64,000 nucleotides of DNA, from contig CACNFT010000003.1 of the NCBI GenBank assembly GCA_902619825.1, positions 10,473-74,472 on the forward strand, read 5' to 3'. The notes under the pieces are model-generated. The model was not told the origin of the DNA and ran no database searches. It saw nothing but the letters and a program-made list of their open reading frames with translations. The stretch is from an uncultured Candidatus Actinomarina sp. GTDB taxonomy: Bacteria; Actinomycetota; Acidimicrobiia; Actinomarinales; Actinomarinaceae. Within the stretch, counting starts at the first letter, position 1. Each line of letters opens with the position of its first letter. The translations under genes were made by a program, and so were the position numbers. This document shows, piece by piece, positions 31,454-58,785 of the stretch.

Positions 31454-31822
31454 TTAACTATTTGTTTCTTCTGTGTCTTTTTCTTCTTGTTCGTATCTAT
31501 TTAGAGCAAGCATAAACATAATAAAAAGTATTAAAGATCCGACAAAATAAGTAATTGGAATAATTCTTATTTCTAGAGCGTTTAGACCATCTATTGATGA
31601 TGGGGCTGGGCCCCTAGGAGCATAAAGTATAAACAGAAATGAATTAATAACTAGCCAACCAAAAGTTGCAGCTCCAACAACAAGGAAGCCAAGTCTTCTA
31701 CCTAAGTTTGTTGCGTTCAAAATAAAAGTTGATCCAAAAAATGAGAGAACAAAAAAAACAAAAAGAAAAATTCCTGTAAATGTCAAATTAGATGACAACA
31801 GGGTTCTCATTATTTCACGCAT
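31454..31822 (-). CDS. small membrane protein (3 TM), possible accessory subunit of the respiratory complex
   Basis: 122 aa. Its start overlaps the stop of the cytochrome c gene by 8 nt, suggesting translational coupling. Confidence 0.4.
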   Translation of the reverse strand: MREIMRTLLSSNLTFTGIFLFVFFVLSFFGSTFILNATNLGRRLGFLVVGAATFGWLVINSFLFILYAPRGPAPSSIDGLNALEIRIIPITYFVGSLILFIMFMLALNRYEQEEKDTEETNS

Positions 31823-33239
31823 CAGGTGTCATTCCTCTCAAATAATCTATAACCAATTCTATATCTGACTGTGGAAGTACCGCACCAAATCCTGGCATTT
31901 TTCCACCACCAACTCCATTAACTCCATAACCTTTACCATTGACAGAACCATTAATAATAAAATCGATAAAGTCATCTCTCTCTTTAAACTGAATGTTTAC
32001 TCGTCCACCTTTTAATGCAGGGCCTAAACCTCCAGAGCCAATTGTTTTTGTATATGCAGCTCCTGCAGAGTATCCAGCAGTGTGACATCTCGCACAATAT
32101 GCATTAAATATTCCTACTGCTCTTGTTGCTTTGTCATAATCTCCATCAAAAGTTGAATCTGCAATATCTTGAAAATCAATAAGCCATAATTTTTGTTCGT
32201 AGGCATTTTCAAGAAATGCTAAACCTTTTTCTGCTTCCTGCATAAATTTGTCATAACCATCAGTAAGTATTCCTAGATTAATAACACTCGTTTCGAGATC
32301 AGAAAGATATCCTCTAACAACTGATGCATCTTTTCTTCCTGGAGTTGATTCTTCTTCATCTGGGTTTAGATTTAAAATTGCAGTACCCAAAATATCTGCA
32401 ATACTTTCACTGTAAACTGATATATCTGTTTCTACTGAATCAAAAAGTCCATCTTCATCGGTATCGATTCCGTTCTGCCTTGCTAGGATGGCAGAAACAA
32501 TTTCAACAGCTTCAATTGCAACAGGTAATCTTTCCGGAGCCAACATTATGTTATTGATAAGTTCATTTTGTTTGTTTATCTCACTTTCAACTTGTAAATC
32601 GGAGTTTTCAATGCGTAACAAAGATGAATTTATATTTTGTTCAATTTGTTGAAGTTCCTCACTTTGTGGAATTTGAAAATAATGCAAATACTCTATCAAA
32701 TCGTCAAGCTGTCCATCATTCATTGGACCTCCACCTTTAAGACCCCAAGCTGGCATAGGTGAGTTTGCTCTACCGTATATAAGCCAATACCTAACTTCAT
32801 CATCATCATATCTATAAAATACATTGTTTATTGCAGGGGCTACCCATGTAACACTTACACCACTTCTTTTTTCAACATATGAAGCTGCTCCTCCACTACC
32901 ATCTACTCCATGGCAGTTTCCGCAGCCAAACTCTTCATAAAGATGATGTCCTCTTTCAACTGAAACATCGTCAAACTCTTCTACAAAACTCTCTTGTCGA
33001 GCTGGTTCACCGAGATAATAAAGTGGGATCATAATTGTAAGTAAAGAAGCTAGGACAACTGCTATTGATAATGTTTTATCAAGATGAGTGGTCTCTAATT
33101 CATCATCTGGAAGATATTTTTGTAAATTTCTTGGTACTTTTTTGATTTTTCCTGCACCACGAAAACCAACTGCGGAAAAATAAGCTATTGCCCCAACAAC
33201 AGCTAAGGCAATTAATGTTATGAAAAATGAGCTGTTCAC
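31815..33239 (-). CDS. membrane-anchored diheme cytochrome c (QcrC-like)
   Basis: Two CxxCH sites (CGNCHG and CARCHT). N-terminal TM. Lies directly downstream of the Rieske gene. Confidence 0.75.
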   Translation of the reverse strand: MNSSFFITLIALAVVGAIAYFSAVGFRGAGKIKKVPRNLQKYLPDDELETTHLDKTLSIAVVLASLLTIMIPLYYLGEPARQESFVEEFDDVSVERGHHLYEEFGCGNCHGVDGSGGAASYVEKRSGVSVTWVAPAINNVFYRYDDDEVRYWLIYGRANSPMPAWGLKGGGPMNDGQLDDLIEYLHYFQIPQSEELQQIEQNINSSLLRIENSDLQVESEINKQNELINNIMLAPERLPVAIEAVEIVSAILARQNGIDTDEDGLFDSVETDISVYSESIADILGTAILNLNPDEEESTPGRKDASVVRGYLSDLETSVINLGILTDGYDKFMQEAEKGLAFLENAYEQKLWLIDFQDIADSTFDGDYDKATRAVGIFNAYCARCHTAGYSAGAAYTKTIGSGGLGPALKGGRVNIQFKERDDFIDFIINGSVNGKGYGVNGVGGGKMPGFGAVLPQSDIELVIDYLRGMTPDA

Positions 33240-33241
33240 TT

Positions 33242-34120
33242 TTATTCCTCAGTCTCTGCAATCGTAATACACGAAAGTCCTTGTGGATATTTCACAGACA
33301 TACCACCAGCACGTGGTGATTCGATGACTGATCCAGTGTCAATAATTAATTTTCCACCCGAAACACTTACAATAAATCTATCTAAGTTTCTTGGAGCGGG
33401 GCCTGCATAATACTCCCCAACCATGTTGTATTTCGAACCATGACATGGACATTCAAATCCTTGAGAAGTGTTACACCATGGAACACGACAGCCTAAATGA
33501 ACACATCTTTGATAAACAGCAACTAAACCTTCTGCAATGGTTCCACTATCAGAAAACTGAGAGTTACCATTATCATCAAATGGTAAGACGTAAGCTCTTG
33601 CTTCTGGAATGAATGCAGGAATAACTGAACCATCTGATTGAAAAATTTGGTTTTTAAGATCATCAACTCTTCCAGCATCTATTTTAGATCCAAAACCTCC
33701 GGAAACTTTTGGATAAAAGAATCCAAGCCAAGAAATTAATTGGATACCAGCAAATGCTCCAAACGTTATTCCAAGAGCTTTACCCAAAAATTGTCTGCGA
33801 GTCATTCCAGCTTCTTCCTCTGAAATTTCTTCATAAATAATTTCTTCTTTTATAGCAATGGATCCATCGGTTTGAATTTCTTCTTCCTCTTGTTCATCAT
33901 CTTCGGATACGTTTTCTTCTTCAAAATCTGGTTCATCTGGAGCTAAAAAATTTGTTTGAGATTTATCAACTTTTAAAGCTTTTTTGTCTAAATTCTTTTT
34001 CCAATTTAATCTTTTTGTTACAGCCTTTGGGGTTCTTCCAGTTACTACAGCTGCAATTCCAATTACACCAAATACACCAATAAATGCGATTGCAATAAAT
34101 GAAAGCTCAACAAGAGTCAT
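33242..34120 (-). CDS. Rieske [2Fe-2S] iron-sulfur subunit with N-terminal TM, acidic linker and internal twin-arginine motif
   Basis: Rieske boxes CVHLGC and CPCHGS. TRRQFLGKALG Tat motif around residue 107, preceded by an extra TM helix and an E/D-rich segment. Confidence 0.85.
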   Translation of the reverse strand: MTLVELSFIAIAFIGVFGVIGIAAVVTGRTPKAVTKRLNWKKNLDKKALKVDKSQTNFLAPDEPDFEEENVSEDDEQEEEEIQTDGSIAIKEEIIYEEISEEEAGMTRRQFLGKALGITFGAFAGIQLISWLGFFYPKVSGGFGSKIDAGRVDDLKNQIFQSDGSVIPAFIPEARAYVLPFDDNGNSQFSDSGTIAEGLVAVYQRCVHLGCRVPWCNTSQGFECPCHGSKYNMVGEYYAGPAPRNLDRFIVSVSGGKLIIDTGSVIESPRAGGMSVKYPQGLSCITIAETEE

Positions 34121-35031
34121 TCGAAATGGACCCAGTCAAGTAAGTCATCGAACCATACACCATCAATCCATGGATAAGTCCAGTTCCAACCTGGGCCTCT
34201 AAATAAAATACCTATAAGACTTAATGTTCCAGCACCTGCAAGAAAAAAGGTCCACAACATTATTGCATACTTTCTTTTTGAAGGCTTATTTTCTTTATTT
34301 CGATCAATATATGGAATTGCCATAAATGCTGCAACACCAATTAGAAGAGGTATCATCACACCTGCGATCTGTGGATCCCAATAGGAGAGTAATTCTTGTA
34401 ATCCTAAAAAGTACCATGGTGCTTTTGCAGGGTTTGGTGTAATATTTGGATTTGCTTCTTCTAATAAAGGAGCTTGCAAAATTGCACTTATAAAAATCAA
34501 AAACGCTGTCATTGCCATTAATGAAATAAACTCTGGCAACATTAGATGAGGCCATGTGTTTACTTTATCAACTGGTTCAGAAGTTGGTTTTTGTATTGGC
34601 TTTGCTTTGACTACTGTAAGCAACCTTTGTGTTACTTTTGTCTCAGGAGCAAAATCTACTTCGGTAGGTACCTGTCCATTTGATTTTTCAGGTGCAGGAG
34701 CTGGTGCTTCTTTGACTGCAGACGCTGCTGCTGGTGTTTCTTTGACCTCAGCTGCTGGTGGCGCTGTTTCTTTGACTTCAGCTGCTGGTGGTGGTGTTTC
34801 TTTGACTTCAACTGCTGGTGGCGCTGTTTCTTTGACCTCAGCTGCTGGTGGCGGTGTTTCTTTGACTTCTACTTCAATTGGAGTAACTTCAATTACATCT
34901 GGTTCTTTCTCAATTTTGGTAGGTTGTACTTCACCTCTCATTTCAGCCAGAGCTTGTTCAACTGAAATACCTAAGGCCTTGGCTCTTGCTTCTGCAGTTT
35001 TTAATAATAAATGTTCTGGAATATCAACCAT
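34117..35031 (-). CDS. cytochrome b C-terminal half (b6f subunit IV-like) with N-terminal helical module and a Pro/Ala-rich repeat linker
   Basis: C-terminal NPNITPNPAKAPWYFLGLQELL matches the conserved P-E-W-Y region of cytochrome b / SUIV. The N-terminal ~40 aa (LLLKTAEARAKALGISVEQALAEM) are hydrophilic. Contains 5x AEVKETPPPA repeats. Confidence 0.75.
   Translation of the reverse strand: MVDIPEHLLLKTAEARAKALGISVEQALAEMRGEVQPTKIEKEPDVIEVTPIEVEVKETPPPAAEVKETAPPAVEVKETPPPAAEVKETAPPAAEVKETPAAASAVKEAPAPAPEKSNGQVPTEVDFAPETKVTQRLLTVVKAKPIQKPTSEPVDKVNTWPHLMLPEFISLMAMTAFLIFISAILQAPLLEEANPNITPNPAKAPWYFLGLQELLSYWDPQIAGVMIPLLIGVAAFMAIPYIDRNKENKPSKRKYAIMLWTFFLAGAGTLSLIGILFRGPGWNWTYPWIDGVWFDDLLDWVHFE
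34711..34870 (-). repeat. about 5 tandem copies of a 30-bp repeat encoding AEVKETPPPA inside the SUIV-like gene
   Basis: The unit TTTGAC(C/T)TCAGCTGCTGGTGG(C/T)G(C/G)TGTTTC recurs at 30-bp periodicity. Confidence 0.85.
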
Positions 35032-35037
35032 ACATAT

Positions 35038-35817
35038 CTATAGAGGACCTGAGATCCCTCCATCCTTTCTTACTCGCCAGAAATGAATTGCCATAAAAAT
35101 TACAATGATGAAAGGAAAAAATAGAACATGTAAAACATAAAATCTAAGAAGTGTTGCTTCAGTAGCTTCTAGTCCTGCAAATAAGGCAAACTTTACTTGA
35201 GCACCAAAAACAGGAGTGTATCCTGCCATATTTCCACCAACTGTCACAGCCCAAATTGCTAACTGATCCCATGGAAGTAAATAGCCAGTGAATGAAAGTA
35301 AGAGTGTAAGAATTAATAATATAACTCCAATCACCCAGTTAAACTCTCTAGGTGCTTTGTACGCCCCATGATAAAAAACTCGAGACATGTGAAGAAATAC
35401 TACTAACACCATGATATGGGCCGCCCATCTGTGCATATTTCTAACAAGTGATCCAAATGCAATACTTGTCTGTAAAGATTGGATATCAACATACGCCATT
35501 TCTGTAGGCCTAAAGTAAAACATTAACCAAATACCAGTTATGGTCAAAACAATAAAAGTAAAGAAACTTAATCCTCCAAGACAAAGGGTGTATGATAACC
35601 TCACGCCATGTCTTTTTACTTTTACTGGGTGAAGGTGATATAAAACATTGTTCATAACAACATAAGATCTGTTTCTTGGGCTATCGGAATAGCCTTTCCT
35701 AAATGGAGAACCAGGTCTAAAAATACTTCCCCAAAGCGTGCTTTCTTTAAGCGAATCACCAAGACCAGAACTTATGTCTTTTAATCTATCTTTAAATTTA
35801 ATTTTTTCGTTTTTCAT
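35038..35817 (-). CDS. cytochrome b N-terminal half (b6-like), heme-binding
   Basis: 4 TM with His pairs as in cytochrome b (VRNMHRWAAHIMVLVVFLHM ... HFWRV). Confidence 0.8.
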   Translation of the reverse strand: MKNEKIKFKDRLKDISSGLGDSLKESTLWGSIFRPGSPFRKGYSDSPRNRSYVVMNNVLYHLHPVKVKRHGVRLSYTLCLGGLSFFTFIVLTITGIWLMFYFRPTEMAYVDIQSLQTSIAFGSLVRNMHRWAAHIMVLVVFLHMSRVFYHGAYKAPREFNWVIGVILLILTLLLSFTGYLLPWDQLAIWAVTVGGNMAGYTPVFGAQVKFALFAGLEATEATLLRFYVLHVLFFPFIIVIFMAIHFWRVRKDGGISGPL

Positions 35818-36272
35818 TAAAGTCTTCCATATATATAGCCATGACGGTCACTTCTCTCTCCAGAGTCTTCATCCCATGGAGATTCATAAACACCATTCTT
35901 TATTGCTGCATCTGCTAAAGATCCAGCAAACTTACCAAGCGATATAACCCCTGTTGGGCACCTATCAACACATAATGCACATCTTGTACAAGCTTCTTCA
36001 TCTACAACAAAGAATCCCGTTTCATTATCTTCCATGTTAGGAGCTTCCACATTTATAGAGTCTTCTATAGCGTCTGTTGATAAGTAATGTATGCACTTCC
36101 ATGGACAGATATCTACACATCCTTCACATAAAATGCACTCTGCCTCATCAATATGTAAAAACTGTTTTGGCCTTACTCTTGAAGAAACCTTTTCCGCGTC
36201 TACCATCGCTAAATTGTATTTTTTTTCAAATTCAGGCATTTCAATAAGTACTTCTGATTTAGCCATCAGCAC
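35817..36272 (-). CDS. 2[4Fe-4S] dicluster ferredoxin-domain protein encoded within the Rieske/cytochrome b operon
   Basis: CILCEGCVDICP and CTRCALCVDRCP motifs. Its stop overlaps the cytochrome b6-like start codon. Confidence 0.75.
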   Translation of the reverse strand: MLMAKSEVLIEMPEFEKKYNLAMVDAEKVSSRVRPKQFLHIDEAECILCEGCVDICPWKCIHYLSTDAIEDSINVEAPNMEDNETGFFVVDEEACTRCALCVDRCPTGVISLGKFAGSLADAAIKNGVYESPWDEDSGERSDRHGYIYGRL

Positions 36273-36852
36273 CTACCTTCACGACTTGTTTTCCATAATC
36301 AGAAACTCTAGTTTTTCCTCTTTCTTTTGCTTCGTTGATATCTTGAATTAGATACCCTACTACAAAAGCTGTCACTAATGCTCCACCTGATATACCAAGT
36401 TGAATAATGTCTTTCAGAGCTCCGAGGCTCATTCCTATTTCGTTACCTAAAAATAAAATTGGAGGAAAGTTGATAAACTCTCTTTGATTTGTCCATTCAA
36501 GAGGTCCTTGAGAAAGGTTTAACCACTCTGAAGGCAATACACCAAATATAAGTGCAAATTGTATCCAACTAAGAAATGCGAGATATGTTGCTCTGGCCCA
36601 AGTTAATTCAGAATCTTGCCATGCAAGCATTGCCATTCCGATCAATAGAAATTGACCTGCACCAAAAGCAATGAGTTGCCCGATGGTTTGCATTAGCCAT
36701 CCCCTAGGCATCCAATTAAAATAATCGATTACTTCGCCTTCTGGAAATCCAGCGAAATGTGCAATAATTACTCCAATTGTTATGCCACCTACTCCAGCAA
36801 AAATTAAAGCAACTCCGATTTTGTATCGGTTAATAAATATAAAATTTAACAA
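36259..36852 (-). CDS. hypothetical integral membrane protein, first gene of the Rieske/cytochrome b operon
   Basis: 197 aa with ~5 TM. Overlaps the ferredoxin gene by 14 nt. Confidence 0.45.
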   Translation of the reverse strand: MLNFIFINRYKIGVALIFAGVGGITIGVIIAHFAGFPEGEVIDYFNWMPRGWLMQTIGQLIAFGAGQFLLIGMAMLAWQDSELTWARATYLAFLSWIQFALIFGVLPSEWLNLSQGPLEWTNQREFINFPPILFLGNEIGMSLGALKDIIQLGISGGALVTAFVVGYLIQDINEAKERGKTRVSDYGKQVVKVGADG

Positions 36853-37021
36853 GTTTCCCTCAACACGTTATATACTCAAAACCTTCAATATCTATTCTAT
36901 CAAGGATTACCTAGATATTATAAATTTTATAACCCAACTTTTTCAAAAAATTACTAATTTTATTGGAGTAATTTCTATGGTTTAATAGTAAAGTCAAATT
37001 GAGTACTTACTTTTTAAATTA

Positions 37022-38425
37022 ATGAGAATAAAAATTTTTCCAAAAAATGAACAAGCGTTTTCAAAATTTTTTATTGTTTTAACTCCACTTTTTTTGCTTC
37101 TTTTAGGAACTATTGCATTAACGAAAGAGGCTTATTTCATTTTTGCAGCCATACTCCCTCAAAATAGTTTTCTCAATAGTGGATATTTAGAAAAACTAAA
37201 TAACCATATAACTTACAATTTGATGCTTTCATTTTTAATTGTGTTTTTGACTGTTTACTTATTACCAAAAACACTTGGAAGAAAATTAATAATATTCCCA
37301 ATTTTTTTTCTAACTTCATTAGGAGTTATTGGATTGGAGTCACTTGATCTATTATTAGGAATATTATTTCCTAATAGTTTTTTGTTCTTTGGAAATACTA
37401 GTTATACATTAATTTTTAAAATTTTAATATTTTTTGCCTTTGTTGGACTCATTATTTTAAATATATTGGCCAAAAAAGAAGCTTCTCTGTTTGTTAGTAG
37501 TCAGTATCTTTTTGGTGCAAGTATTTTTTATTTGATATCACTTCTAATTTATAGGGCTGATTTTGTTGTATTTAGCGACAATTTTTTCATTAATTCAATG
37601 TATGTTTCAACACATATATATGTCGGATATTCGTTCGTATTTCTATCATTACTTCATTTCATGATTACAAAAGGTATAAATGCTACGTTATACAGTAAAA
37701 CATTAGGATCTATTGGATTTTGGGGATTCTTGTTTCTTATTCCTTGGTCAAATTTTAAATTTTACTTTGGTTCTGTATTGCCAAATTGGATAGAAAATAT
37801 ATCTCTTTATTTGTCTATGAGTTTGTCTCTCCCACTGCTTGCTATAGCTGTAAATTTCTTCAGAACGGTTTCAACGAGAATTGAGGAAAATAAAGTAATT
37901 TATAGTCTTATAAGTTTCTCGTTTGGGATATTTGTTATAACAAATATCTTTCAAATTGTGTCCTCGCTCTCAAATATCATTCCCATATTGAGTCTTACAA
38001 ATTTTGAGATAGCAATTAGATATGGATATGTTTTCAGTGCAATATTAATTACAATCTCGTTTGTTTATTATCTGATTCCTAAAATCTTTGGAAGAGAAGT
38101 CAAATTTTCAAGGCTTGAATCTTTAACTAGTTTTCTATTAAAACTTGTGGTGTCTTTAACATTATTTTCTAATGCTTTAATCGGAATTATTTCTGGTTAC
38201 TCATGGAATGCTGGTGCCAATGCAGGAAACCCAACAATCTATGGTGAAGGGTTCAGTTTATTGTGGTCACTAATCAGTACTCCTTTAACGCTAAATATGT
38301 TTTTATCTTTGACATTACTTCTGCCATTTCTGTTGTTTTTCATTTCAGTCGTCAAGGCTGTAGTAAATGGAGAAATTACAGAAGCAGAAACAATTGAACT
38401 TACTGAAGAGGAGCTTCCAGTATGA
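37022..38425 (+). CDS. polytopic membrane protein (about 12 TM) of unknown function, first gene of a cytochrome c operon
   Basis: 467 aa. Overlaps the next gene by 4 nt. One segment (VYYLIPKIFGREVKFSRL) vaguely recalls a cbb3 CcoN helix, but the His metal ligands are absent. Confidence 0.45.
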   Translation: MRIKIFPKNEQAFSKFFIVLTPLFLLLLGTIALTKEAYFIFAAILPQNSFLNSGYLEKLNNHITYNLMLSFLIVFLTVYLLPKTLGRKLIIFPIFFLTSLGVIGLESLDLLLGILFPNSFLFFGNTSYTLIFKILIFFAFVGLIILNILAKKEASLFVSSQYLFGASIFYLISLLIYRADFVVFSDNFFINSMYVSTHIYVGYSFVFLSLLHFMITKGINATLYSKTLGSIGFWGFLFLIPWSNFKFYFGSVLPNWIENISLYLSMSLSLPLLAIAVNFFRTVSTRIEENKVIYSLISFSFGIFVITNIFQIVSSLSNIIPILSLTNFEIAIRYGYVFSAILITISFVYYLIPKIFGREVKFSRLESLTSFLLKLVVSLTLFSNALIGIISGYSWNAGANAGNPTIYGEGFSLLWSLISTPLTLNMFLSLTLLLPFLLFFISVVKAVVNGEITEAETIELTEEELPV

Positions 38426-38620
38426 GTGAACTCTTAAGTAAAGTTGCTGAATTATTAAACGCGCCAGAATCATTGGTGCAACGATCTGCTGAAGCAAGAG
38501 CAGAGGCCTCTGGAAGAACTGTAGATGAAGTTTTACAATCCTGGGCTGGAGGAGAGTCTGTGGCTGCTGCAGAAAAACCTGTCGAAGAAACACCTCCTGT
38601 GGAAGAAGTGGCACAACCTA
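38422..38620 (+). repeat. 199-bp perfect direct repeat, copy 1 (5' end of the first cytochrome c gene)
   Basis: Identical to 39236-39434. The antisense shadow ORFs 38345-38614 and 39210-39428 encode the same peptide, which confirms the identity. Confidence 0.9.
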
Positions 38621-39243
38621 TAGAGAAACCTGTAGAAACATCAGAAGAGGAAAAAGATGAAGAACAAGAATCAACTGAAGAATCATCAATTGTTTTTGAT
38701 GAAAATGTTTCTGAATTGATTACGGAGGTATTAATAGAAGAAGAAAATGTTGCAGTAAAAAAAGAAAGTTCGATTGGATTTATTGCCGGTGTAATTGGAG
38801 TAGTTGTCTTTACATACCTATTTGCTTTCTCAATACCAAAACAACAAAGCGAGGAATTAGTCAGACAATCTTTAAATAATTCAATTCAAGTTAGTGATGA
38901 TATATTAAAAGGAGCAATTGTGTATAACCAATTAAATTGTCAATCATGTCATACACAAAATGTAAGAATACTTATTCCTGATTCACAAAATGGAAAAATA
39001 CTAAAAAATCAACTTGCAGATAAAAATATTATAGAAAATACTGGGTTACTTAGATTAGCTACTGACCTATCAACATTTGGAAATAGGGAGCCAATAAACC
39101 AAAAAGCATGGCTACAAAGATATTTAACTCAACCTTCCTCTGTAAGAGAAGAAATACCCCATCCATCAGTAAATTTCCTTACCGATCAAGATTTAGATTA
39201 TTTGATAACTTATTTATTATCTTTAGGAAGTACAAATGAGTGA
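38422..39243 (+). CDS. membrane-anchored mono-heme cytochrome c with N-terminal cytoplasmic helical module
   Basis: CQSCHT heme site, one TM (IGFIAGVIGVVVFTYLFAF), and an N-terminal 66 aa identical to the next gene. Confidence 0.7.
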   Translation: MSELLSKVAELLNAPESLVQRSAEARAEASGRTVDEVLQSWAGGESVAAAEKPVEETPPVEEVAQPIEKPVETSEEEKDEEQESTEESSIVFDENVSELITEVLIEEENVAVKKESSIGFIAGVIGVVVFTYLFAFSIPKQQSEELVRQSLNNSIQVSDDILKGAIVYNQLNCQSCHTQNVRILIPDSQNGKILKNQLADKNIIENTGLLRLATDLSTFGNREPINQKAWLQRYLTQPSSVREEIPHPSVNFLTDQDLDYLITYLLSLGSTNE

Positions 39244-39434
39244 ACTCTTAAGTAAAGTTGCTGAATTATTAAACGCGCCAGAATCATTGGTGCAACGATC
39301 TGCTGAAGCAAGAGCAGAGGCCTCTGGAAGAACTGTAGATGAAGTTTTACAATCCTGGGCTGGAGGAGAGTCTGTGGCTGCTGCAGAAAAACCTGTCGAA
39401 GAAACACCTCCTGTGGAAGAAGTGGCACAACCAG
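39236..39434 (+). repeat. 199-bp perfect direct repeat, copy 2 (5' end of the second cytochrome c gene)
   Basis: See copy 1. Confidence 0.9.
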
Positions 39435-40186
39435 TTGATGAAAAAAAAGATGTAGAGGAACCCAAAGAAGAGTCTGTAGAAATAATCAAGAATGAGAGCG
39501 AAAAATTACCAACTGTATCTTCTCAAACAAATATAAAAAAAGTTATACAAAAAGTATCTTTTGCAAATAAGACATTGGATATAAAGGTAAATGCGGAAAC
39601 ATCTTTGCCGAGATGGCTAAATTTTAGTTTTGTATTTATTCCTCTCTTTATTGTTATTGGGATAATCAATACATCATCGACACAAGAATGTGGGGAGAAT
39701 GGAATTTTAGATGTTGATCGAAAAACTCAATTAACTGTGAATTGTGATGGATCGCCATTTGAAGGTAAAGGTGTTGGATCTGCAAGCTCAATAAACTATA
39801 TCGCACTTGGACAACAAGTTTATTCTGGCGCTGCTGCTTGTGCTGGTTGTCATGGAGTAAATGGTGGCGGCGGGGTAGGTCCTGCATTTACAGGTGGAGA
39901 GCTTTATACAACTTTTCCAACTTGTAGTGATCATGCATTGTGGATTGAACTTGGTTCTGCAGGTTGGCAGGCTGAAATTGGACCCGCATATGGAGCAGAG
40001 AATAAAGTATCAATCGGCGGAATGCCCGGATTTGTAGGAAAACTTACTGAAGATGAGATTTACGCAGTTGTGGTTTTTGAAAGAGTAGTATTTGGTGGTG
40101 GAAATACTGACGAAGTACTCGAAGACTGTGGACTTCTTGAAACAGATGAGGAAATCACTACAGAAGCTATTGAGCCAACTGGTTAA
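39236..40186 (+). CDS. membrane-anchored mono-heme cytochrome c, paralog of the upstream gene
   Basis: CAGCHG heme site, one TM, and the same N-terminal 66 aa module as the previous gene. Confidence 0.7.
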   Translation: MSELLSKVAELLNAPESLVQRSAEARAEASGRTVDEVLQSWAGGESVAAAEKPVEETPPVEEVAQPVDEKKDVEEPKEESVEIIKNESEKLPTVSSQTNIKKVIQKVSFANKTLDIKVNAETSLPRWLNFSFVFIPLFIVIGIINTSSTQECGENGILDVDRKTQLTVNCDGSPFEGKGVGSASSINYIALGQQVYSGAAACAGCHGVNGGGGVGPAFTGGELYTTFPTCSDHALWIELGSAGWQAEIGPAYGAENKVSIGGMPGFVGKLTEDEIYAVVVFERVVFGGGNTDEVLEDCGLLETDEEITTEAIEPTG

Positions 40187-40314: not shown

Positions 40315-40761
40315 ATGGCGAAAAAGAAACGAGAGAAAAAAGTTGTTGGCTGGAAAGAACAAGTTGCTTTACCTGATTTAAAAATAAAAAGTGTAATTGC
40401 AAAAATTGATACTGGAGCAAATTTAGCAACAATTGATGCTGCTGATATTAAGTTTGTTACGAGAAAAGATGTAAAGTACGTAAAATTTACTGTTAAAAAA
40501 AGAAACAACACCGTTAGAAAAACTTCCGCTCCCCTTGCAGGATTTAAAAGAATAAGAAGTTCCAACGGAGATGTTGAAAAAAGACCGTATATAAAAACTG
40601 ATATCTTAATGGATGGAATTACCAAAAATATTGAATTGACTCTTACTGACAGAGGCCCCATGGATTACACAATGTTAATTGGAAGAAAAGCTTTGGGAAG
40701 AAGATGGATTGTAAATCCCTCAATTAGCTTTTTGACAAAACCCAAAAGAAATACAAAATGA
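40315..40761 (+). CDS. RimK-associated retropepsin-like aspartic peptidase (ATP-dependent zinc protease/DUF785 family)
   Basis: KIDTGANLATIDA aspartyl-protease D-T-G-A motif. Overlaps rimK by 4 nt, the conserved pairing. Confidence 0.65.
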   Translation: MAKKKREKKVVGWKEQVALPDLKIKSVIAKIDTGANLATIDAADIKFVTRKDVKYVKFTVKKRNNTVRKTSAPLAGFKRIRSSNGDVEKRPYIKTDILMDGITKNIELTLTDRGPMDYTMLIGRKALGRRWIVNPSISFLTKPKRNTK

Positions 40762-41660
40762 AGATAGGAATATTATCACAAGACATAAGGTTATATTCAA
40801 CAAAACGTCTTTACGATACGGCAATTAATAGAGGTCATGATACTGAGGTTGTAAGTTATTTAAGATGTTACATGAATATTGCAAAAGCAAAGCCAAGAAT
40901 ATTCTCTGCTGGTCGTGAATTAAATTATGATTCTGTAATACCAAGAATTGCTGCAACGTGGACATTTTATGGTGCGGCTGTTGTAAGACAGTTTGAACTA
41001 ATGGGTTCTGTTTCAGCTAATTCATCAGCCGGAATTAGTAGATCTAGAGATAAATTAAGAGCCTTACAGCTAATTGGAAATACAGGTGTAGAGATGCCAA
41101 TAACTGGTTATGTTCATTTTTCAAGAGATGTTGAAGCTGTTTTAAAAAGTGTAGGGGAACCACCATTTGTTATTAAGTTACTTGAGGGAACTCAAGGAAG
41201 AGGTGTTGTCTTAACTGAAACAATGGATGCTGCAATAAGTGTGATTGAGACAATGAAAAAAATCGATGCAAACATTCTTGTTCAGGAGTTTATCAGTGAG
41301 TCTAAAGGTGAAGATATAAGAGCAATCGTTGTAGGAGATAAAGTAGTTGCCTCAATGAAACGAATTGCAAAACCTGGAGAATTTAGATCAAATGTACACT
41401 TAGGTGGAAGAGTTGATAATTATGATATATCTCCTGAAGAGGAAGAGAGTGCAGTTAAAGCAGCAAAGATTCTTAAACTTGATGTTGCAGGAGTTGATCT
41501 AATTCAATCAAACAGAGGTCCTTTGGTACTTGAAGTAAATTCTTCTCCCGGATTAGAAGGAATCGAAACTGCAACAGATATTGATGTTGCAGATGAAATT
41601 ATTTCATTTTTAGAAGATAAAGTAGAAAACACTGACAAATCAAAACCAATAGATATATAG
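40758..41660 (+). CDS. rimK: RimK-family ATP-grasp alpha-L-glutamate ligase
   Basis: ATP-grasp fold with the same length and layout as RimK (VIKLLEGTQGRGVVL ... EVNSSPGLEGIE). Confidence 0.8.
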   Translation: MKIGILSQDIRLYSTKRLYDTAINRGHDTEVVSYLRCYMNIAKAKPRIFSAGRELNYDSVIPRIAATWTFYGAAVVRQFELMGSVSANSSAGISRSRDKLRALQLIGNTGVEMPITGYVHFSRDVEAVLKSVGEPPFVIKLLEGTQGRGVVLTETMDAAISVIETMKKIDANILVQEFISESKGEDIRAIVVGDKVVASMKRIAKPGEFRSNVHLGGRVDNYDISPEEEESAVKAAKILKLDVAGVDLIQSNRGPLVLEVNSSPGLEGIETATDIDVADEIISFLEDKVENTDKSKPIDI

Positions 41661-41664
41661 TTTT

Positions 41665-41955
41665 TTAAATATCCATATTTAATAAGATTTTAAGAATATT
41701 GTATTTTAGAAAATTTTTCACAATATTGAATTGACTCAAGATTCCCTCATCTAAAACTTTTTTACCATATAAAACCACGGGTACTCTCAATAAAAATTCT
41801 TCATAACCATCTTCAACATCAACTTTTTGAATAGTAAAAAGGTTTTTTAAATAACCAAGACTTTTTAAACCTTTATCACATAACTCACAATTTTCTGTTA
41901 CGACAATACGTATAGTGGGCATATCTCTAATATAGTCAAATGAGACCCTGGACAT
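41665..41955 (-). CDS. glutaredoxin-like thioredoxin-fold protein
   Basis: 96 aa with a CELC (CxxC) motif in a short thioredoxin-like frame. Confidence 0.45.
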   Translation of the reverse strand: MSRVSFDYIRDMPTIRIVVTENCELCDKGLKSLGYLKNLFTIQKVDVEDGYEEFLLRVPVVLYGKKVLDEGILSQFNIVKNFLKYNILKILLNMDI

Positions 41956-42015
41956 TAATATTTATAGTTTTGTTAGCTGTCATTATTTTTGTCTCAGGTG
42001 CAATTGTCTTGAATA

Positions 42016-42819
42016 TTATTTCTTGATATCTATTTTTTCGCCATCAACAACACTTATTATTTTTGAGGCATTATTGTTTTTTGCAAAAATTGAAATCATA
42101 CCCCACGAATCAGTGATCAATCCTACTTGATTTACTCCATCGCTTTGATATGTTTCAGACCAGGTCATTTTAATCTCTTGATTTTGAATAATAACACTTA
42201 AGACATCTCCAATACCTTTTCCAAGATCAGTTAATTCATCCGGTGAAATGTTAGTCTGACAATTACCATAATGATCCACCCATAAAACCTCACCCTTTAC
42301 TTCATCATCTTTCTTTTCTGTCAATGGAATCAAATATTGTTGAAGATTCATAAGATCAACTTCCTCACCACAATCTTTGATATCAAGTTGACCTGAGGCA
42401 ATTCCAGCTGCAAAAGGAGAAAATACATCTCTAGCATGAAAGGTGTTCCCGTCACTGGGGATAATCCAATTTTCATTTTCAAGGAGATAAGCTCTTTTTG
42501 CTCCCCCGACAGTTGCACATGCAAGATTTAGTAATCCATTATCAGGTCCTATCATCACTCCCCAATCAGTTTCAATAGCAACAGGTTTTCTTTCCGTCCC
42601 CACGCCTGGATCAACAACCGCCAAAAGAACACCCTGTGGAATGTACTGAATAGCCCTCATCAATAACAAACTTCCATACTTTATATTTTGTGCTGGAATA
42701 CCATGAGAAATGTCGTTGATTTTTAACTCTGAATCAATTCTATTGATCACACCTTTTACAACACCGACGGAACCATCTGATAAACCAAAATCAGATGCAA
42801 ACGATATGATTTTTTTCAT
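42016..42819 (-). CDS. SAM hydroxide adenosyltransferase (DUF62; fluorinase/chlorinase-like SAM hydrolase family)
   Basis: The N-terminus ISFASDFGLSDGSVGVVKGVI...DISHGIP matches the DUF62 signature (TDFG..D.YVG.MKGVI...DI.H). Confidence 0.75.
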   Translation of the reverse strand: MKKIISFASDFGLSDGSVGVVKGVINRIDSELKINDISHGIPAQNIKYGSLLLMRAIQYIPQGVLLAVVDPGVGTERKPVAIETDWGVMIGPDNGLLNLACATVGGAKRAYLLENENWIIPSDGNTFHARDVFSPFAAGIASGQLDIKDCGEEVDLMNLQQYLIPLTEKKDDEVKGEVLWVDHYGNCQTNISPDELTDLGKGIGDVLSVIIQNQEIKMTWSETYQSDGVNQVGLITDSWGMISIFAKNNNASKIISVVDGEKIDIKK

Positions 42820-50800: not shown

Positions 50801-51288
50801 CATTTGAACCACGAGGAATGGTTGAAGGACATGAAAATATAAAAATGAGTAATTCCATTGTTGATTATGTCTTTAGAGCTTTGGGCTTAGAATATTTGAA
50901 TAGAACAGATATTGTACAAAACCCACCTGAGGAATCTGCTTCAGCTCCTGTTGAGGAAGCTACTTCAGCTCCTGTTGAGGAAGCTACTTCAGCTCCTGTT
51001 GAGGAAGCTGAACCAGTAGTTGAGGTAAAAGAATCAGATCCTCCGAGCAGTTCTAAAGCGACAGAAGTTTCAAATGAAGTACAAGAAGTACAGTTTGTTA
51101 CAAAAGTTAAAGAGGTAGAAGCTTTAGACACAACTGAGGCTACTTCAAATTCAGTCACTACAGTACAAGAAGTTCTTGGTGATATGATGGGTGATGCCCC
51201 TGCATGTCCTGATTGTGGTCACATAACAATAAGAAATGGTTCTTGTTACAAATGTCTTAATTGTGGAAACTCTTTGGGTTGCAGCTAA
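47899..51288 (+). CDS. nrdJ: class II (adenosylcobalamin-dependent) ribonucleotide reductase with C-terminal zinc ribbon
   Basis: 1129 aa with N-terminal NrdJ conservation and a GTG start. C-terminal CPDCG...CYKCLNCG zinc ribbon preceded by SAPVEEAT x3 repeats. Confidence 0.9.
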   Translation: MAKNTGLKINRKYTSPGDPYKDIVWEKRSSRITNPDGSVVFEMNNVEIPSTWSQVATDIMVSKYFRKAGVPQTDENGNELKDDNGNAVLGPETSSKQVFNRLAETWRHWGEETGYFASTEDAQAFEDELKYMLATQMAAPNSPQWFNTGLNYKYGLTGKPQGFWYVDPSTGELTAGEDSYSRPQPHACFIQSIDDDLVNEGGIMDLWVKEARLFKFGSGTGTNFSNLRGEGEKLSGGGVSSGVMSFLKIGDRAAGAIKSGGTTRRAAKMVILDLDHPDIEDFIEWKAIEEDKARALINAGYPSDYNGEAYATVSGQNSNNSVRVPNEFIKALETDGDWELTARTDGSTMKTVKARELWNKIADAAWRCADPGVQFNTTINEWHTSPAGGQIRASNPCSEYLFLDNTACNLASLNLVKFYDDDNQVFDVASYKHALRIWTVVLEISVEMAQFPSKEIAQGSYDYRTLGLGYANLGSLLMRKGIAYDSELGRAIAGALTAMLTGEAYKASAEMASIVGPFPKYSENKENMLRVMGNHRKAAYDSGDYVGISHDLLAIDQDLCPDDLLKGAQESWDGALELGEEHGYRNAQATVLAPTGTIGLLMDCDTTGVEPDFALMKFKKLAGGGYMKIANQSIGPALNALGYTNQQTEEIIQYVIGSMSLDGAPFINKETLIDKGLNDQDIENIENSLPGAFEIQHAFNVFVVGEETMQRLNIQEEEYTSFDFNLLEKLGFTKTEIAEANKFICGTQTIEGALHLKDEDLSVFDCANKCGKDGERFIHYMGHVRMMAAAQPFISGAISKTVNMPNEATIEDIENCYFESAGLGIKAIAIYRDGSKASQPLSASSDDGESEETDPQVSEIIENESMLMHGNYPAGTSPTKAYAGTTRPRFLLPERREGWTQEAKIAGHKVYLRTGEYPDGTLGEVFIDIAKEGATLKGVLGCFAIAVSKGLQYGVPLEEFVDTFTFQTFEPRGMVEGHENIKMSNSIVDYVFRALGLEYLNRTDIVQNPPEESASAPVEEATSAPVEEATSAPVEEAEPVVEVKESDPPSSSKATEVSNEVQEVQFVTKVKEVEALDTTEATSNSVTTVQEVLGDMMGDAPACPDCGHITIRNGSCYKCLNCGNSLGCS
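50938..51010 (+). repeat. 27-bp tandem repeat (about 2.7 copies) encoding ASAPVEEAT in the nrdJ C-terminal linker
   Basis: GCTTCAGCTCCTGTTGAGGAAGCTACT is repeated head to tail. Confidence 0.85.
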
Positions 51289-52613
51289 AAAAACTAAAAA
51301 TAATTTATAACCTACAAATATTTAAAATATCAGTAATTTTACTTGTATCCATGATTGGATATTATTTTTTTGAATTTTATATAAGAGAAAACAATCCAAG
51401 TTTACATTTTTGGTGTATTCAAATAAGTAACGATTTTAATTTTGGTCCATTTAATAGGGTGTCTCTTCCAATACACTGTGATGAGGGTCCATATAGACTT
51501 TCATCACAATCACTTGAGCAATTTTTTAGTAAAAACAATCCATATCAAACCCGACCATTGTATGTATTTTTAATTTATGCTTTAAGCAATTTAATTGATT
51601 TTTTTACCTTTTATAATTTGACTGAATATCAAAATTTTCGATTTTCAATAATTGTTCTACAAATTTTAATTATGACTCCAATTATTTACTTATTTATTTC
51701 TTTATTAAATATTAAATTTAAATCTTTCAAAGATTTTTTTATAATTGTCCTTTTAATAGGAATACCTGGAATAAGGTGGAATATTTTTTTTCCGTCTGCA
51801 GGAAATTTAACACTACTATTTTTTCTAATAGTTTTAAATCTGATAGTTAAGAAAGAGAAGTTTAAAAATGATAAAAAGTCTATTTATTTATTACTAAGTG
51901 TTTTATCTTTGGCACACCTCTCTTCTATTGTTTATGGTTTAATTATTGAATTAGTAGATCTTTTTAATACCAAAAAAATTAATCTTTTAAATAGGATTTT
52001 AGATCTAGGAATACTTGTTATTTTTCCCTTGATATATAGATTTATCGTTCATCTCTCACCATACGAGTTTTATGATTGGCATACAGGTGTTTATAGTCAA
52101 TTCTCTTGGATAATTTATGAGTTACAAAATGGAACATTTTTTAATTTTGAAACCCTTAATACCCATATCATTACCTATATTGAGATTACATCTAATTATT
52201 TAGGATACTTTTTTATTCTTTTATCTTATTTTTTTGCACTACTGTTACTCCTAAAATACAAGAAAAAAGAGATACCAATAAAAGTAAAGTACGCTTTTTT
52301 TATAAATTTAATCATTTTTATATTTTGGGGACTACAAGGTTTATATGAATCATTCAGATTTACTAATTACAGCATCGGCTACTTTTTGTTCATTGCAATA
52401 TTTATATTATTAGTTGAAAGTTTTGAAAAAGATATATATTTGATTACAGCTATCTTTTTCTATATTTTATCTGTTGGTTATATTGAACCTTACAATGAAG
52501 CATTAAATTATCCTCAACTAAATTATTTAACTTTTTTATCGTCCTTCTTATTTTTTGTTTTTATATCTAAAGAGATAAGATTAGATAAAGAAAGTTTAAG
52601 TTATGAATCATAA
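51261..52613 (+). CDS. large polytopic membrane protein, candidate GT-C-fold glycosyltransferase
   Basis: About 12 TM with very low-GC I/F/L/N/K-rich composition. The likely start is internal (about 51351, MIGYYFF), which avoids overlap with nrdJ. Confidence 0.4.
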   Translation: MWKLFGLQLKKLKIIYNLQIFKISVILLVSMIGYYFFEFYIRENNPSLHFWCIQISNDFNFGPFNRVSLPIHCDEGPYRLSSQSLEQFFSKNNPYQTRPLYVFLIYALSNLIDFFTFYNLTEYQNFRFSIIVLQILIMTPIIYLFISLLNIKFKSFKDFFIIVLLIGIPGIRWNIFFPSAGNLTLLFFLIVLNLIVKKEKFKNDKKSIYLLLSVLSLAHLSSIVYGLIIELVDLFNTKKINLLNRILDLGILVIFPLIYRFIVHLSPYEFYDWHTGVYSQFSWIIYELQNGTFFNFETLNTHIITYIEITSNYLGYFFILLSYFFALLLLLKYKKKEIPIKVKYAFFINLIIFIFWGLQGLYESFRFTNYSIGYFLFIAIFILLVESFEKDIYLITAIFFYILSVGYIEPYNEALNYPQLNYLTFLSSFLFFVFISKEIRLDKESLSYES

Positions 52614-54078: not shown

Positions 54079-54152
54079 GGGCGCTTAGCTCAGTCCGGCA
54101 GAGCGCTTCCCTTACAAGGAAGAAGTCACAGGTTCAAATCCTGTAGCGCCCA
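54079..54152 (+). tRNA. tRNA-Val (anticodon TAC)
   Basis: Acceptor GGGCGCT/AGCGCCC, D-loop AGCTCAGTCCGGCAGAGC, anticodon loop CTTACAA and T-loop GGTTCAAATCC. No encoded CCA. Confidence 0.85.
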
Positions 54153-54247
54153 CAAGGGTTTTTCAGAAATCTTTACATATATATACTCAAAAGACACCTA
54201 AAAGACACCGCTTCTGTAGAGTTTCATTTGGTAACATACATTTAGTT

Positions 54248-54769: not shown

Positions 54770-54892
54770 AAGACACCAAAATTTTCTAAAACTGTAGATA
54801 CTCTCTGATAACCTCTGATATCTTTCTGAAAAAGCTTACGTTCGTTGACTCTATAAATTGATACTCTCTGATATTACCAAGTATTTAATGGC

Positions 54893-54950
54893 TCTTTCCT
54901 TACAAGGAAGAAGTCACAGGTTCAAATCCTGTAGCGCCCACTAGGGTTTT
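54893..54950 (+). repeat. duplicated 3' fragment of tRNA-Val (anticodon stem to acceptor end) plus about 35 bp of flank
   Basis: TTCCTTACAAGGAAGAAGTCACAGGTTCAAATCCTGTAGCGCCCA is identical to the 3' part of the tRNA at 54079-54152. The flanks GGGTTTTTCAGAAATCTTTA(C/T)ATATATAT are also conserved. Confidence 0.8.
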
Positions 54951-55259
54951 TCAGAAATCTTTATATATATATGTGCCTCAACCCCACATTTTGCTTAAAT
55001 TTTTGTAAACTTTAAATTATGAAATACAAAAAAAACTTAGGTGCTTTATTAGTTTTTTTAGCTTTAACCGGGCAAGCATTTGGCTCTCTTAACTCTAGCT
55101 ACACTCCAACTCAAGCAATTCTTGTTGTTCTGTTTGCGTATCTTGGAATTCAATTAACTTACTTCGTTTATTTTAAAAATAACTAAGACGAGTGCGAAAA
55201 AATTAATTTAAACCCCTTGAATTTATAAATTCACAGAATTTTGGAATTATAATACTTCT

Positions 55260-58638: not shown

Positions 58639-58785
58639 AAAAAAGCTTTTGTAAATAGCCTAGTAATAAAATCCAAATAGTTTTAGCAAGTAATAAATAG
58701 TTAAATTCACTCTTAAATTTTTTGTAAATGCTATTTAGTTAATAAAGAATTTATTTTTTAAAGTGTAATTATAATTATCGAAGTA

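Follow-up and report, generated by a model that had tools for sequence, protein, structure and literature searches.

A predicted cbb3-derived membrane complex lacking most cofactor ligands, encoded opposite a Rieske/cytochrome b6-type operon in Candidatus Actinomarina

We analyzed a stretch of 64,000 nucleotides (nt) from an uncultured Candidatus Actinomarina (contig CACNFT010000003.1), referred to below as the window, and focused on a three-gene operon that encodes a 467-residue membrane protein followed by two cytochromes c and that faces a Rieske/cytochrome b6-type (bc-type) operon. In its sequence and its modeled fold, the 467-residue protein is a true homolog of CcoN, the subunit I of the cbb3 or C-family heme-copper oxidases (HCOs), and the alignments place it without five of the six canonical histidine ligands of heme b, heme b3, and CuB and without the active-site tyrosine. 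We consider it probable that the three proteins form a membrane complex derived from a cbb3 oxidase, with a core subunit that is most likely catalytically dead, and that this complex serves the facing bc complex as a cytochrome c scaffold or relay. The two cytochrome genes start with an exact repeat that recurrent gene conversion keeps uniform.

The window has a GC content of 32%, and homologs of the 467-residue protein come from Candidatus Actinomarina and the Actinomarinales, which are marine, low-GC Acidimicrobiia. The comparison set consisted of 26 Actinomarinales genome loci carrying relatives of this protein with 44 to 99% identity, to which we added the loci of three distant high-GC Acidimicrobiia (L028, 60% GC; L032, 66% GC; L033, 65% GC).

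The CcoN homolog and its cofactor sites

A preliminary description of this DNA, made from its letters alone, had treated the 467-residue product as an uncharacterized protein of 12 transmembrane helices with no recognizable function. That view did not hold. The Pfam COX1 family matched residues 15 to 399 with 42.1 bits (cut-off, 34.8), phmmer comparisons with solved CcoN chains gave E values from 1e-10 to 5e-7 (1.3e-10 for 3mk7_A), and a hidden Markov model (HMM) built from 12 canonical C-family sequences scored the protein at 90 bits (E = 1.6e-28). An AlphaFold2 (AF2) model calculated from a 73-sequence alignment reaching distant relatives had a predicted local distance difference test score (pLDDT) of 89.6 and a predicted template modeling (TM) score of 0.91; the model from a 37-sequence alignment of Actinomarinales only (pLDDT, 48.7) was unusable. 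When the confident model was compared to the PDB with Foldseek, the top seven matches were all CcoN (TM scores of 0.83 to 0.85 over 461 to 472 aligned columns), nitric oxide (NO) reductases and A- and B-type oxidases ranked below them, and the entries of two bc1-cbb3 supercomplexes (6XKW and 8SMR) were among the best structural matches. The HCO subunit I homology and the predicted 12-helix fold are thus both closest to CcoN. The preliminary description had allowed that structure prediction might instead lead to a transporter family; a transporter unrelated to respiration was ruled out by these fold matches. Relatives of the protein already carry the name "cbb3-type cytochrome c oxidase subunit I" in public records (Acidimicrobiia bacterium; NCBI, JGI).

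The fate of each cofactor ligand was read from three alignments, with P. stutzeri CcoN (3MK7) as the numbering reference: HMMER pairwise alignments, a MAFFT alignment with the canonical CcoN of Helicobacter ganmani (L027), and an hmmalign alignment to the canonical HMM. The earlier remark that the heme and copper histidines were missing proved correct. The whole protein contains only three histidines. Neither of the two histidines that hold the low-spin heme b is present, the H60 column being N in the window and N/Q or variable in the family and the H347 column being R/S/K in some alignments and a gap in others; a histidine near the H60 column, H62, is found in the window's clade only and is Q elsewhere. 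In none of the 131 family members is H345, which binds heme b3 on the proximal side, retained: the residue is either deleted or exchanged for I/V. At the CuB site, H257 corresponds to an invariant lysine (K246) and H258 to F/Y, and H198 (positions 37613 to 37615), which falls on the match state of H207 and is 98% conserved, is the sole retained ligand. The column of Y251, the tyrosine cross-linked to a CuB histidine, holds I/L/M, and no new conserved His, Cys, or Met was found among the 131 family members. An exhaustive profile search yielded a wider family of 282 representatives, and most of its best approximately 75 full-length matches lack the canonical HHYHHHH pattern.

The loss of these residues is not accompanied by signs of decay. 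All 26 loci are intact and encode proteins of 452 to 468 residues with 119 invariant columns, and the ratio of nonsynonymous to synonymous substitution rates (dN/dS) is 0.07 to 0.10 for the CcoN-like gene, 0.12 to 0.23 for the first cytochrome gene, and 0.06 to 0.14 for the second. These results demonstrate that all three genes are under purifying selection. For the CcoN-like gene, the low dN/dS, the invariant columns, and the intact open reading frames (ORFs) indicate a functioning protein, and a pseudogene was ruled out by the dN/dS values and the ORFs.

Cytochrome subunits, N-terminal module, and facing bc-type operon

The three genes stand in the order N-O-P, which is kept in the relatives and is that of ccoN-ccoO-(ccoQ)-ccoP. 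No ccoQ-like ORF was seen in the operon or nearby, and no ccoGHIS assembly or copper delivery genes turned up among the scanned ORFs of the window. The CcoN-like and CcoO-like genes overlap by 4 nt (ATGA, 38422 to 38425) and the CcoO-like and CcoP-like genes by 8 nt (39236 to 39243). Both the ATGA coupling and the likeness to a cbb3 layout had been pointed out in the preliminary description and are borne out here, the latter by the gene order, the CcoN fold, and the CcoO- and CcoP-like partners.

The first cytochrome, like CcoO, is a membrane-anchored monoheme protein. It is composed of an N-terminal cytoplasmic module, an acidic linker, one transmembrane helix, and a heme domain with an invariant CQSCH motif (38938 to 38952). 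Its Pfam scores are 22.9 bits for FixO (below the cut-off of 29.6) and 23.1 bits for Cytochrom_C, the NCBIfam models of cbb3 subunit II match it weakly, and the precomputed Pfam FixO match of its relatives is unmarked. A conserved Met is lacking in the heme domain, which carries an invariant IPHP where CcoO has the S-I-M-P motif that supplies the sixth ligand; the counterpart is VPHP or GGHP in L030, L032, and L033, and SLMPSF is kept only in L028. Since a conserved Met is absent and IPHP replaces SIMP, the heme appears to be ligated by two histidines in the Actinomarinales, L030, L032, and L033.

The second cytochrome has the same N-terminal module, a linker, one transmembrane helix, and a heme domain (CAGCH, 39839 to 39853) in which GGMPGF supplies the Met ligand and four additional cysteines are conserved. 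It matches Cytochrome_CBB3 with 28.3 bits, barely above the cut-off of 27, and Cytochrom_C with 33.6 bits, and it carries a single CAGCH in all loci, not the two CXXCH motifs of the diheme CcoP. The pair had earlier been called tandem paralogs with different heme motifs. The motifs do differ, and the term paralog fits the shared module but not the heme domains, one of which is FixO/CcoO-like and the other CcoP/class-I-like.

Compared to the canonical cbb3 oxidase (CcoNOP of P. stutzeri, 3MK7), the operon has the same gene order with overlapping start and stop codons and a CcoN-like protein that retains, besides the fold, the motifs YY..PK, GFW, P.W, and YY..P..GR; one partner resembles CcoO in having a single heme and an N-terminal transmembrane anchor, and the third subunit is a membrane-anchored cytochrome c. 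It differs in that the CcoN-like protein retains a single one of the six His ligands and no cross-linked Tyr, IPHP stands in place of the Met motif, the third subunit is monoheme instead of diheme, and both cytochromes carry a cytoplasmic extension of approximately 110 to 140 residues, including the module, that canonical CcoO and CcoP (H. ganmani) do not have.

The module comprises approximately 45 residues, was found in both cytochromes in every lineage, and has the core PExLVQRSAEARAxASGxxVxxVLxSWAGGE, followed by a linker rich in acidic residues, Pro, Glu, Val, and Ala and by the single transmembrane helix. Its helix-loop-helix core, MSELLSKVAELLNAPESLVQRSAEARAEASGRTVDEVLQSWAGGE, is encoded by the first repeat copy, which extends into the acidic linker. 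A shorter version, detectable at the protein level only, opens subunit IV of the facing bc-type operon, and a motif scan detected it as MVDIPEHLLxRSAEARAKALGISVEQALAEMKGE in every locus reaching that gene; L028 has two tandem copies there. The core common to both cytochromes and subunit IV is L.xRSAEARAxAxGxxVxxxL. In both cytochromes a single transmembrane helix precedes the c-type heme domain and there is no signal peptide, and because cytochrome c maturation places the heme domains outside the cell, the module lies in the cytoplasm. The N terminus of subunit IV is likewise on the cytoplasmic side in the b6f topology. When the module was compared by sequence with Pfam and the PDB, no family or structure was returned, only designed helical repeats and chance matches, and database searches with a single sequence or a profile of the module returned only fragments of at most 116 residues from the same genes.

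On the other side of a 169-bp spacer lies a complete Rieske/cytochrome b6-type operon (31454 to 36852, minus strand), in which cytochrome b is split into b6 and subunit IV and is accompanied by a Rieske protein, a c-type cytochrome, and, among others, a 122-residue ORF. The spacer has the extent given in the preliminary description if the 197-residue ORF starts at a TTG. Within it, the minus strand has a sigma-70-like site close to the consensus (36946 to 36917); the promoter scan returned fewer promoter-like sites than it did in shuffled sequence, and terminator-like hits lay on the wrong strand, inside the repeat, and were not used as evidence. Subunit IV also carries a 30-nt tandem repeat of 5.6 units (34703 to 34869, Tandem Repeats Finder) that encodes an EVKETPPPAA-type linker, and a 176-residue ORF on the plus strand (34556 to 35086) is an antisense by-product of it.

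The divergent pairing with the bc operon, noted earlier for the window, is conserved across the class. A 10-gene layout, consisting of an ORF of approximately 120 residues, diheme cytochrome c, Rieske, subunit IV, cytochrome b6, ferredoxin, and a membrane protein of approximately 200 residues facing the CcoN-like, FixO-like, and cytochrome c genes, was found in the 26 Actinomarinales loci and in L028, L032, and L033, the CcoN-like proteins of which are approximately 20% identical to that of the window. In these three distant loci, genes of 200 to 214 residues hold the position of the 197-residue gene and a 149-residue gene holds that of the ferredoxin-like gene, and every Actinomarinales locus that extends far enough has the motif of subunit IV upstream, on the opposite strand. 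The ferredoxin-like gene is a class-wide conserved part of the bc operon. A soil relative (L031) has a ligand-less CcoN and a FixO-like gene in another context with no bc operon. These distant loci show that the ligand loss is old and widespread and the coupling to the bc-type operon class-wide. The main genome paper on the group states that Complex III is missing in the Actinomarinales (PMC7771536); the complete bc-type operon of the window contradicts this statement.

Possible roles of the complex

A complex of the kind that we consider probable would no longer reduce O2. Its ligand-less CcoN would be a membrane scaffold that holds two membrane-anchored c-type hemes beside the bc complex, and these hemes could form an electron relay or docking platform toward the real terminal acceptor. 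The N-terminal module could be a common handle by which three subunits either bind one cytoplasmic partner, possibly the ferredoxin-like protein, or interact with each other and so link the two complexes.

Several known systems resemble parts of this arrangement. The bc1-cbb3 supercomplexes of R. capsulatus (6XKW) and P. aeruginosa (8SMR) also combine Rieske/cytochrome b and CcoN-type proteins with c-type hand-over subunits, but their CcoN works as an oxidase and the genes of their two complexes do not face each other, whereas the CcoN-like protein of the window lacks its cofactor ligands and is a putative partner of the bc complex. The bcc-aa3 supercomplex of M. smegmatis (6HWH) and C. glutamicum (7QHO) belongs to the same phylum, and in it, too, a diheme cytochrome c of the bc-type complex replaces a soluble cytochrome c; the window differs from it by the split of cytochrome b into b6 and subunit IV, by a ferredoxin-like gene and extra membrane proteins, and by a partner that is C-family-like and not aa3. 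A former enzyme kept under selection as a structural part has a counterpart in the core 1 and core 2 proteins of mitochondrial bc1, which are peptidase derived, although here the dead subunit would be the former catalytic heart of a terminal oxidase and its structural role is putative.

Two alternatives concern the CcoN-like protein itself. The first, which we hold to be rather unlikely, is that it has a function other than electron transfer, for instance as an ion or proton conduit, in heme handling or uptake, or as a sensor, and that the cytochromes are its accessories. Such a function would fit the strong purifying selection seen on a membrane protein of 12 helices without cofactor ligands, the invariance of its long periplasmic loop, SGYSWNAGANAGNPTIYGEGF, the existence of the ligand-less CcoN and FixO pair without a bc operon in L031, and the heme auxotrophy reported in Actinomarinales sub-clades (bioRxiv 10.1101/2021.01.11.426183). 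However, the protein has no transporter family signature and its fold matches are exclusively respiratory HCO and NO reductase subunits, and the tight class-wide coupling to the bc operon and two c-type cytochromes points to the respiratory chain. The CcoN-like family is also found in high-GC Acidimicrobiia, which speaks against this alternative as well. Heme biosynthesis has been reported in one Acidimicrobiales family, MedAcidi-G1 (PMC10205998), and would count against it too if that family carries the locus.

The second alternative, that the protein continues to act as a terminal oxidase or NO reductase by means of non-canonical ligands (H198, K246, E258, and tyrosines in the Actinomarinales), we judge to be improbable. 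The protein has neither of the axial heme b ligands nor the proximal heme b3 ligand, no conserved His, Met, Cys, or Lys has taken over those columns, and the active-site Tyr is absent. H198 on the CuB H207 position, together with the invariant K246 (at H257) and E258, would be in favor of retained activity, but the residues conserved in the Actinomarinales are A/S/T/G/Q in the wider ligand-less family, and H198 is replaced by Q or S in the nearest outgroup, P0242. This alternative also draws on the fact that no other oxidase was seen in the window and on reports of HCO variants with Lys or Met as a heme ligand or with Asp in place of a CuB His (PMC11214002).

Other observations weigh against the reading of the complex as a scaffold or relay, which we nevertheless prefer. 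The link among the three proteins and the bc complex consists of gene adjacency only. No aa3 or bd oxidase was found among the larger ORFs of the window, and another oxidase in Actinomarina is implied in the literature by the flagging of Complex III alone as missing (PMC7771536). Ligation by two histidines would lower the potential of the CcoO-like heme, which would suit a relay downstream of the bc complex less well. The invariance of H198, K246, and E258 near the former active site in the Actinomarinales hints at retained chemistry, and the protein may still hold heme on non-histidine ligands. The alignment behind the confident AF2 model contains canonical CcoN sequences, and the role of the module as a docking handle is conjectural, as it matches no known domain.

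A broader proposal, which we advance only tentatively and regard as possible but doubtful, is that the locus represents a so far undescribed respiratory module of the Acidimicrobiia, the abundant Actinomarinales of the ocean surface included, in which an ancient cbb3 oxidase, minus its hemes and copper, would have become the cytochrome-c-bearing partner of a ferredoxin-containing Rieske/b6 complex, with three subunits from the two complexes joined or jointly regulated via a cytoplasmic helix-loop-helix handle kept uniform by gene conversion. If this were true, the "cbb3 oxidase" annotations used for high-affinity O2 respiration in Acidimicrobiia would be wrong, and the bc complex would have an unrecognized output or regulatory branch. 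Metagenome studies read cbb3 labels as a capacity for high-affinity oxygen respiration (e.g., PMC8357290), and a family without heme and copper ligands should not be counted as such. With a strongly conserved HCO core that lacks cofactors and is coupled to a bc complex, one has to ask why a dead oxidase would be kept; such a core would also provide a natural "scaffold-only" CcoN. In the literature consulted, mostly from non-subscription journals, we found no description of a ligand-less C-family HCO or of a link between bc and cbb3 genes in Acidimicrobiia, and a survey of new HCO families (PMC11214002) does not mention ligand-less C-family homologs.

The exact repeat and other features of the window

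The longest exact repeat in the window is a direct repeat of 197 nt, with two 100% identical copies approximately 0.8 kb apart in the same operon and a GC content of 46% versus 32% for the window. The two copies are identical from the first base of the ATG onward and differ upstream of it. Perfect identity had been claimed in the preliminary description over 199 bp, and that length was slightly overstated. The first mismatch past the repeat (T at 38619 versus A at 39433) yields CCT and CCA for Pro66 and is synonymous, so the claim of 66 identical N-terminal residues, with which the translations agree, stands.

The history of the repeat was studied in the 18 genomes that carry both cytochrome genes, over the first 135 nt. 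In 13 of these, the identity between the two module copies is 98.5% or higher, compared to 79 to 98% for the best match in another genome, and 11 of the 13 have no codon difference, synonymous or nonsynonymous, between their copies. Orthologous modules in different genomes, on the other hand, differ on average in 16.3 codons synonymously and in 7.6 nonsynonymously out of 44. The exact runs shared by the paralogous copies are 128 to 234 nt long and end within the linker, with no identity upstream, which gives the tracts sharp boundaries between unrelated flanks. The other five genomes (L011, L019, L020, L021, and L024) have diverged copies with 14 to 19 synonymous versus 1 to 6 nonsynonymous differences, in an orthologous pattern. 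The erasure of synonymous differences within genomes, together with the conservation of the peptide where the copies have diverged, indicates that selection preserves the peptide and gene conversion removes the synonymous differences. Taken together, these comparisons show concerted evolution by recurrent gene conversion acting on top of protein-level selection, and of the two explanations first offered for the identity, conversion or selection, both apply. The same conversion process also acts far outside the Actinomarinales, with the two module copies of L033 being 94% identical. Paralogous segments identical within a genome and diverged between genomes are also typical of tufA/tufB and rRNA operons; unlike those, the tract here is only approximately 160 to 235 nt long, begins at the ATG, and is confined to a single domain shared by two neighboring genes that are otherwise unrelated. 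The locus is a clean case of domain-sized concerted evolution between adjacent, otherwise different genes.

It is very unlikely that the identity is an assembly artefact arising from repeat collapse, a copy-pasted repeat, or a chimera of strains. The arrangement of two genes and two modules recurs in 18 independent public genomes, and the presence among them of single-cell genomes, of metagenome-assembled genomes (MAGs) on contigs of approximately 1 Mb (L014 and L015), and of MAGs with long-read-style names (L007 and L015) argues against an artefact in general, as do the genome-specific module sequences and the intact reading frames with different heme domains. An artefact would account for the repeat-linked anomalies of some public assemblies (L006, L012, and L009), for the many database fragments of the module that stop at contig ends, and for the unusual divergence of the window from its closest relatives between 38422 and approximately 39590, but this diverged segment spans both repeats and shows no switch inside either. 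The idea of a single very recent duplication or domain transfer in the window strain, with no ongoing conversion, can be set aside almost entirely, as a single genome would fit either option but both genes carry the module in every lineage, including Acidimicrobiia with CcoN-like proteins of approximately 20% identity, and in many separate lineages the copies are identical within and diverged between genomes, while other lineages have old, diverged copies in an orthologous pattern.

The diverged segment itself is 70 to 90% identical to the corresponding parts of L001 to L003, with flanks that are 94 to 100% identical, and the dS of the CcoO-like gene is approximately 3 times that of the CcoN-like gene. 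Since it lies between near-identical flanks and has this elevated dS, the segment may be a recombinant cassette from an unsampled lineage that includes both repeats.

In two of the assemblies with anomalies, the CcoO-like gene is absent and the module is fused directly to the CcoP-like body (L006, 9401 to 10363; L012, 9397 to 10338), and in the third (L009, 3614 to 5349) there are two near-identical CcoO-like genes, which differ at 8 nt, none of them beyond the first 70 nt. These arrangements could be due either to repeat-mediated deletion and duplication or to assembly collapse or looping at the repeat. A practical consequence is that the repeat breaks or collapses public assemblies. Two MAGs titled "Gammaproteobacteria bacterium" (L020, JBJKYB010000001.1; L025, CBFIBF010000028.1) are probably misbinned or mislabeled, because they carry an Actinomarinales-type locus with the same synteny; in L020 the CcoP-like gene is split into a module-only ORF of 77 residues and an ORF of 204 residues.

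The coordinates of the two facing operons and of the repeated elements are given in Table 1.

Table 1. Features of the cbb3-like and bc-type operons in the window
Feature	Positions	Strand	Basis
CcoN-like pseudo-catalytic subunit (HCO subunit I, C-family; putative), 467 residues	37022-38425	+	Pfam COX1, phmmer, AF2/Foldseek
CcoO/FixO-like membrane-anchored monoheme cytochrome c, 273 residues	38422-39243	+	Pfam, NCBIfam, alignment with H. ganmani CcoO
CcoP-like membrane-anchored monoheme class-I cytochrome c, 316 residues	39236-40186	+	Pfam, conservation
Repeat copy 1, 197 nt, residues 1-66 of the CcoO-like protein	38422-38618	+	
Repeat copy 2, identical 197 nt, start of the CcoP-like gene	39236-39432	+	
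Divergent intergenic region between bc-type and cbb3-like operons, 169 bp	36853-37021		
Membrane protein of unknown family, first gene of bc operon, 197 residues	36259-36852	-	No Pfam/NCBIfam match
2x[4Fe-4S] ferredoxin-like protein, no transmembrane helix apparent, 151 residues	35817-36272	-	Pfam Fer4 families
Cytochrome b6-like subunit, 259 residues	35038-35817	-	Pfam Cytochrome_B, 145 bits
Cytochrome b6f-type subunit IV (PetD-like) with N-terminal module, 304 residues	34117-35031	-	Pfam Cytochrom_B_C, NCBIfam
Third, shorter module copy (protein level only), N terminus of subunit IV, MVDIPEHLLLKTAEARAKALGISVEQALAEMRGE	34930-35031	-	Motif scan
Rieske iron-sulfur subunit, 292 residues	33242-34120	-	Pfam Rieske
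Diheme cytochrome c subunit, 474 residues	31815-33239	-	Pfam Cytochrome_CBB3 x2, weak NCBIfam QcrC

Downstream of the CcoP-like gene (40315 to 42819) are a Zn_protease-RimK pair, which by sequence similarity recurs downstream in Actinomarinales loci, and a gene for an S-adenosylmethionine hydroxide adenosyltransferase (SAM_HAT). SAM_HAT is also found near the locus in distant Acidimicrobiia (L028, 11477 to 12283; L033, 11611 to 12063), which supports the orthology of the whole region. A gene for a Rex-like regulator flanks the bc operon in the high-GC relatives and not in the window.

Elsewhere in the window, four large ORFs (648, 475, 438, and 450 residues; 56692 to 61526 and 51261 to 52613) had no Pfam match at E <= 1e-5. 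The 3' half of a tRNA-Val gene (54079 to 54153) and 31 bases downstream of it recur 788 nt further on (54891 to 54972) with 95% identity. The two copies bracket an ORF of 173 residues that has no family match and lies beside methyltransferase and glycosyltransferase genes, and this att-like duplication at tRNA-Val suggests a small insertion.

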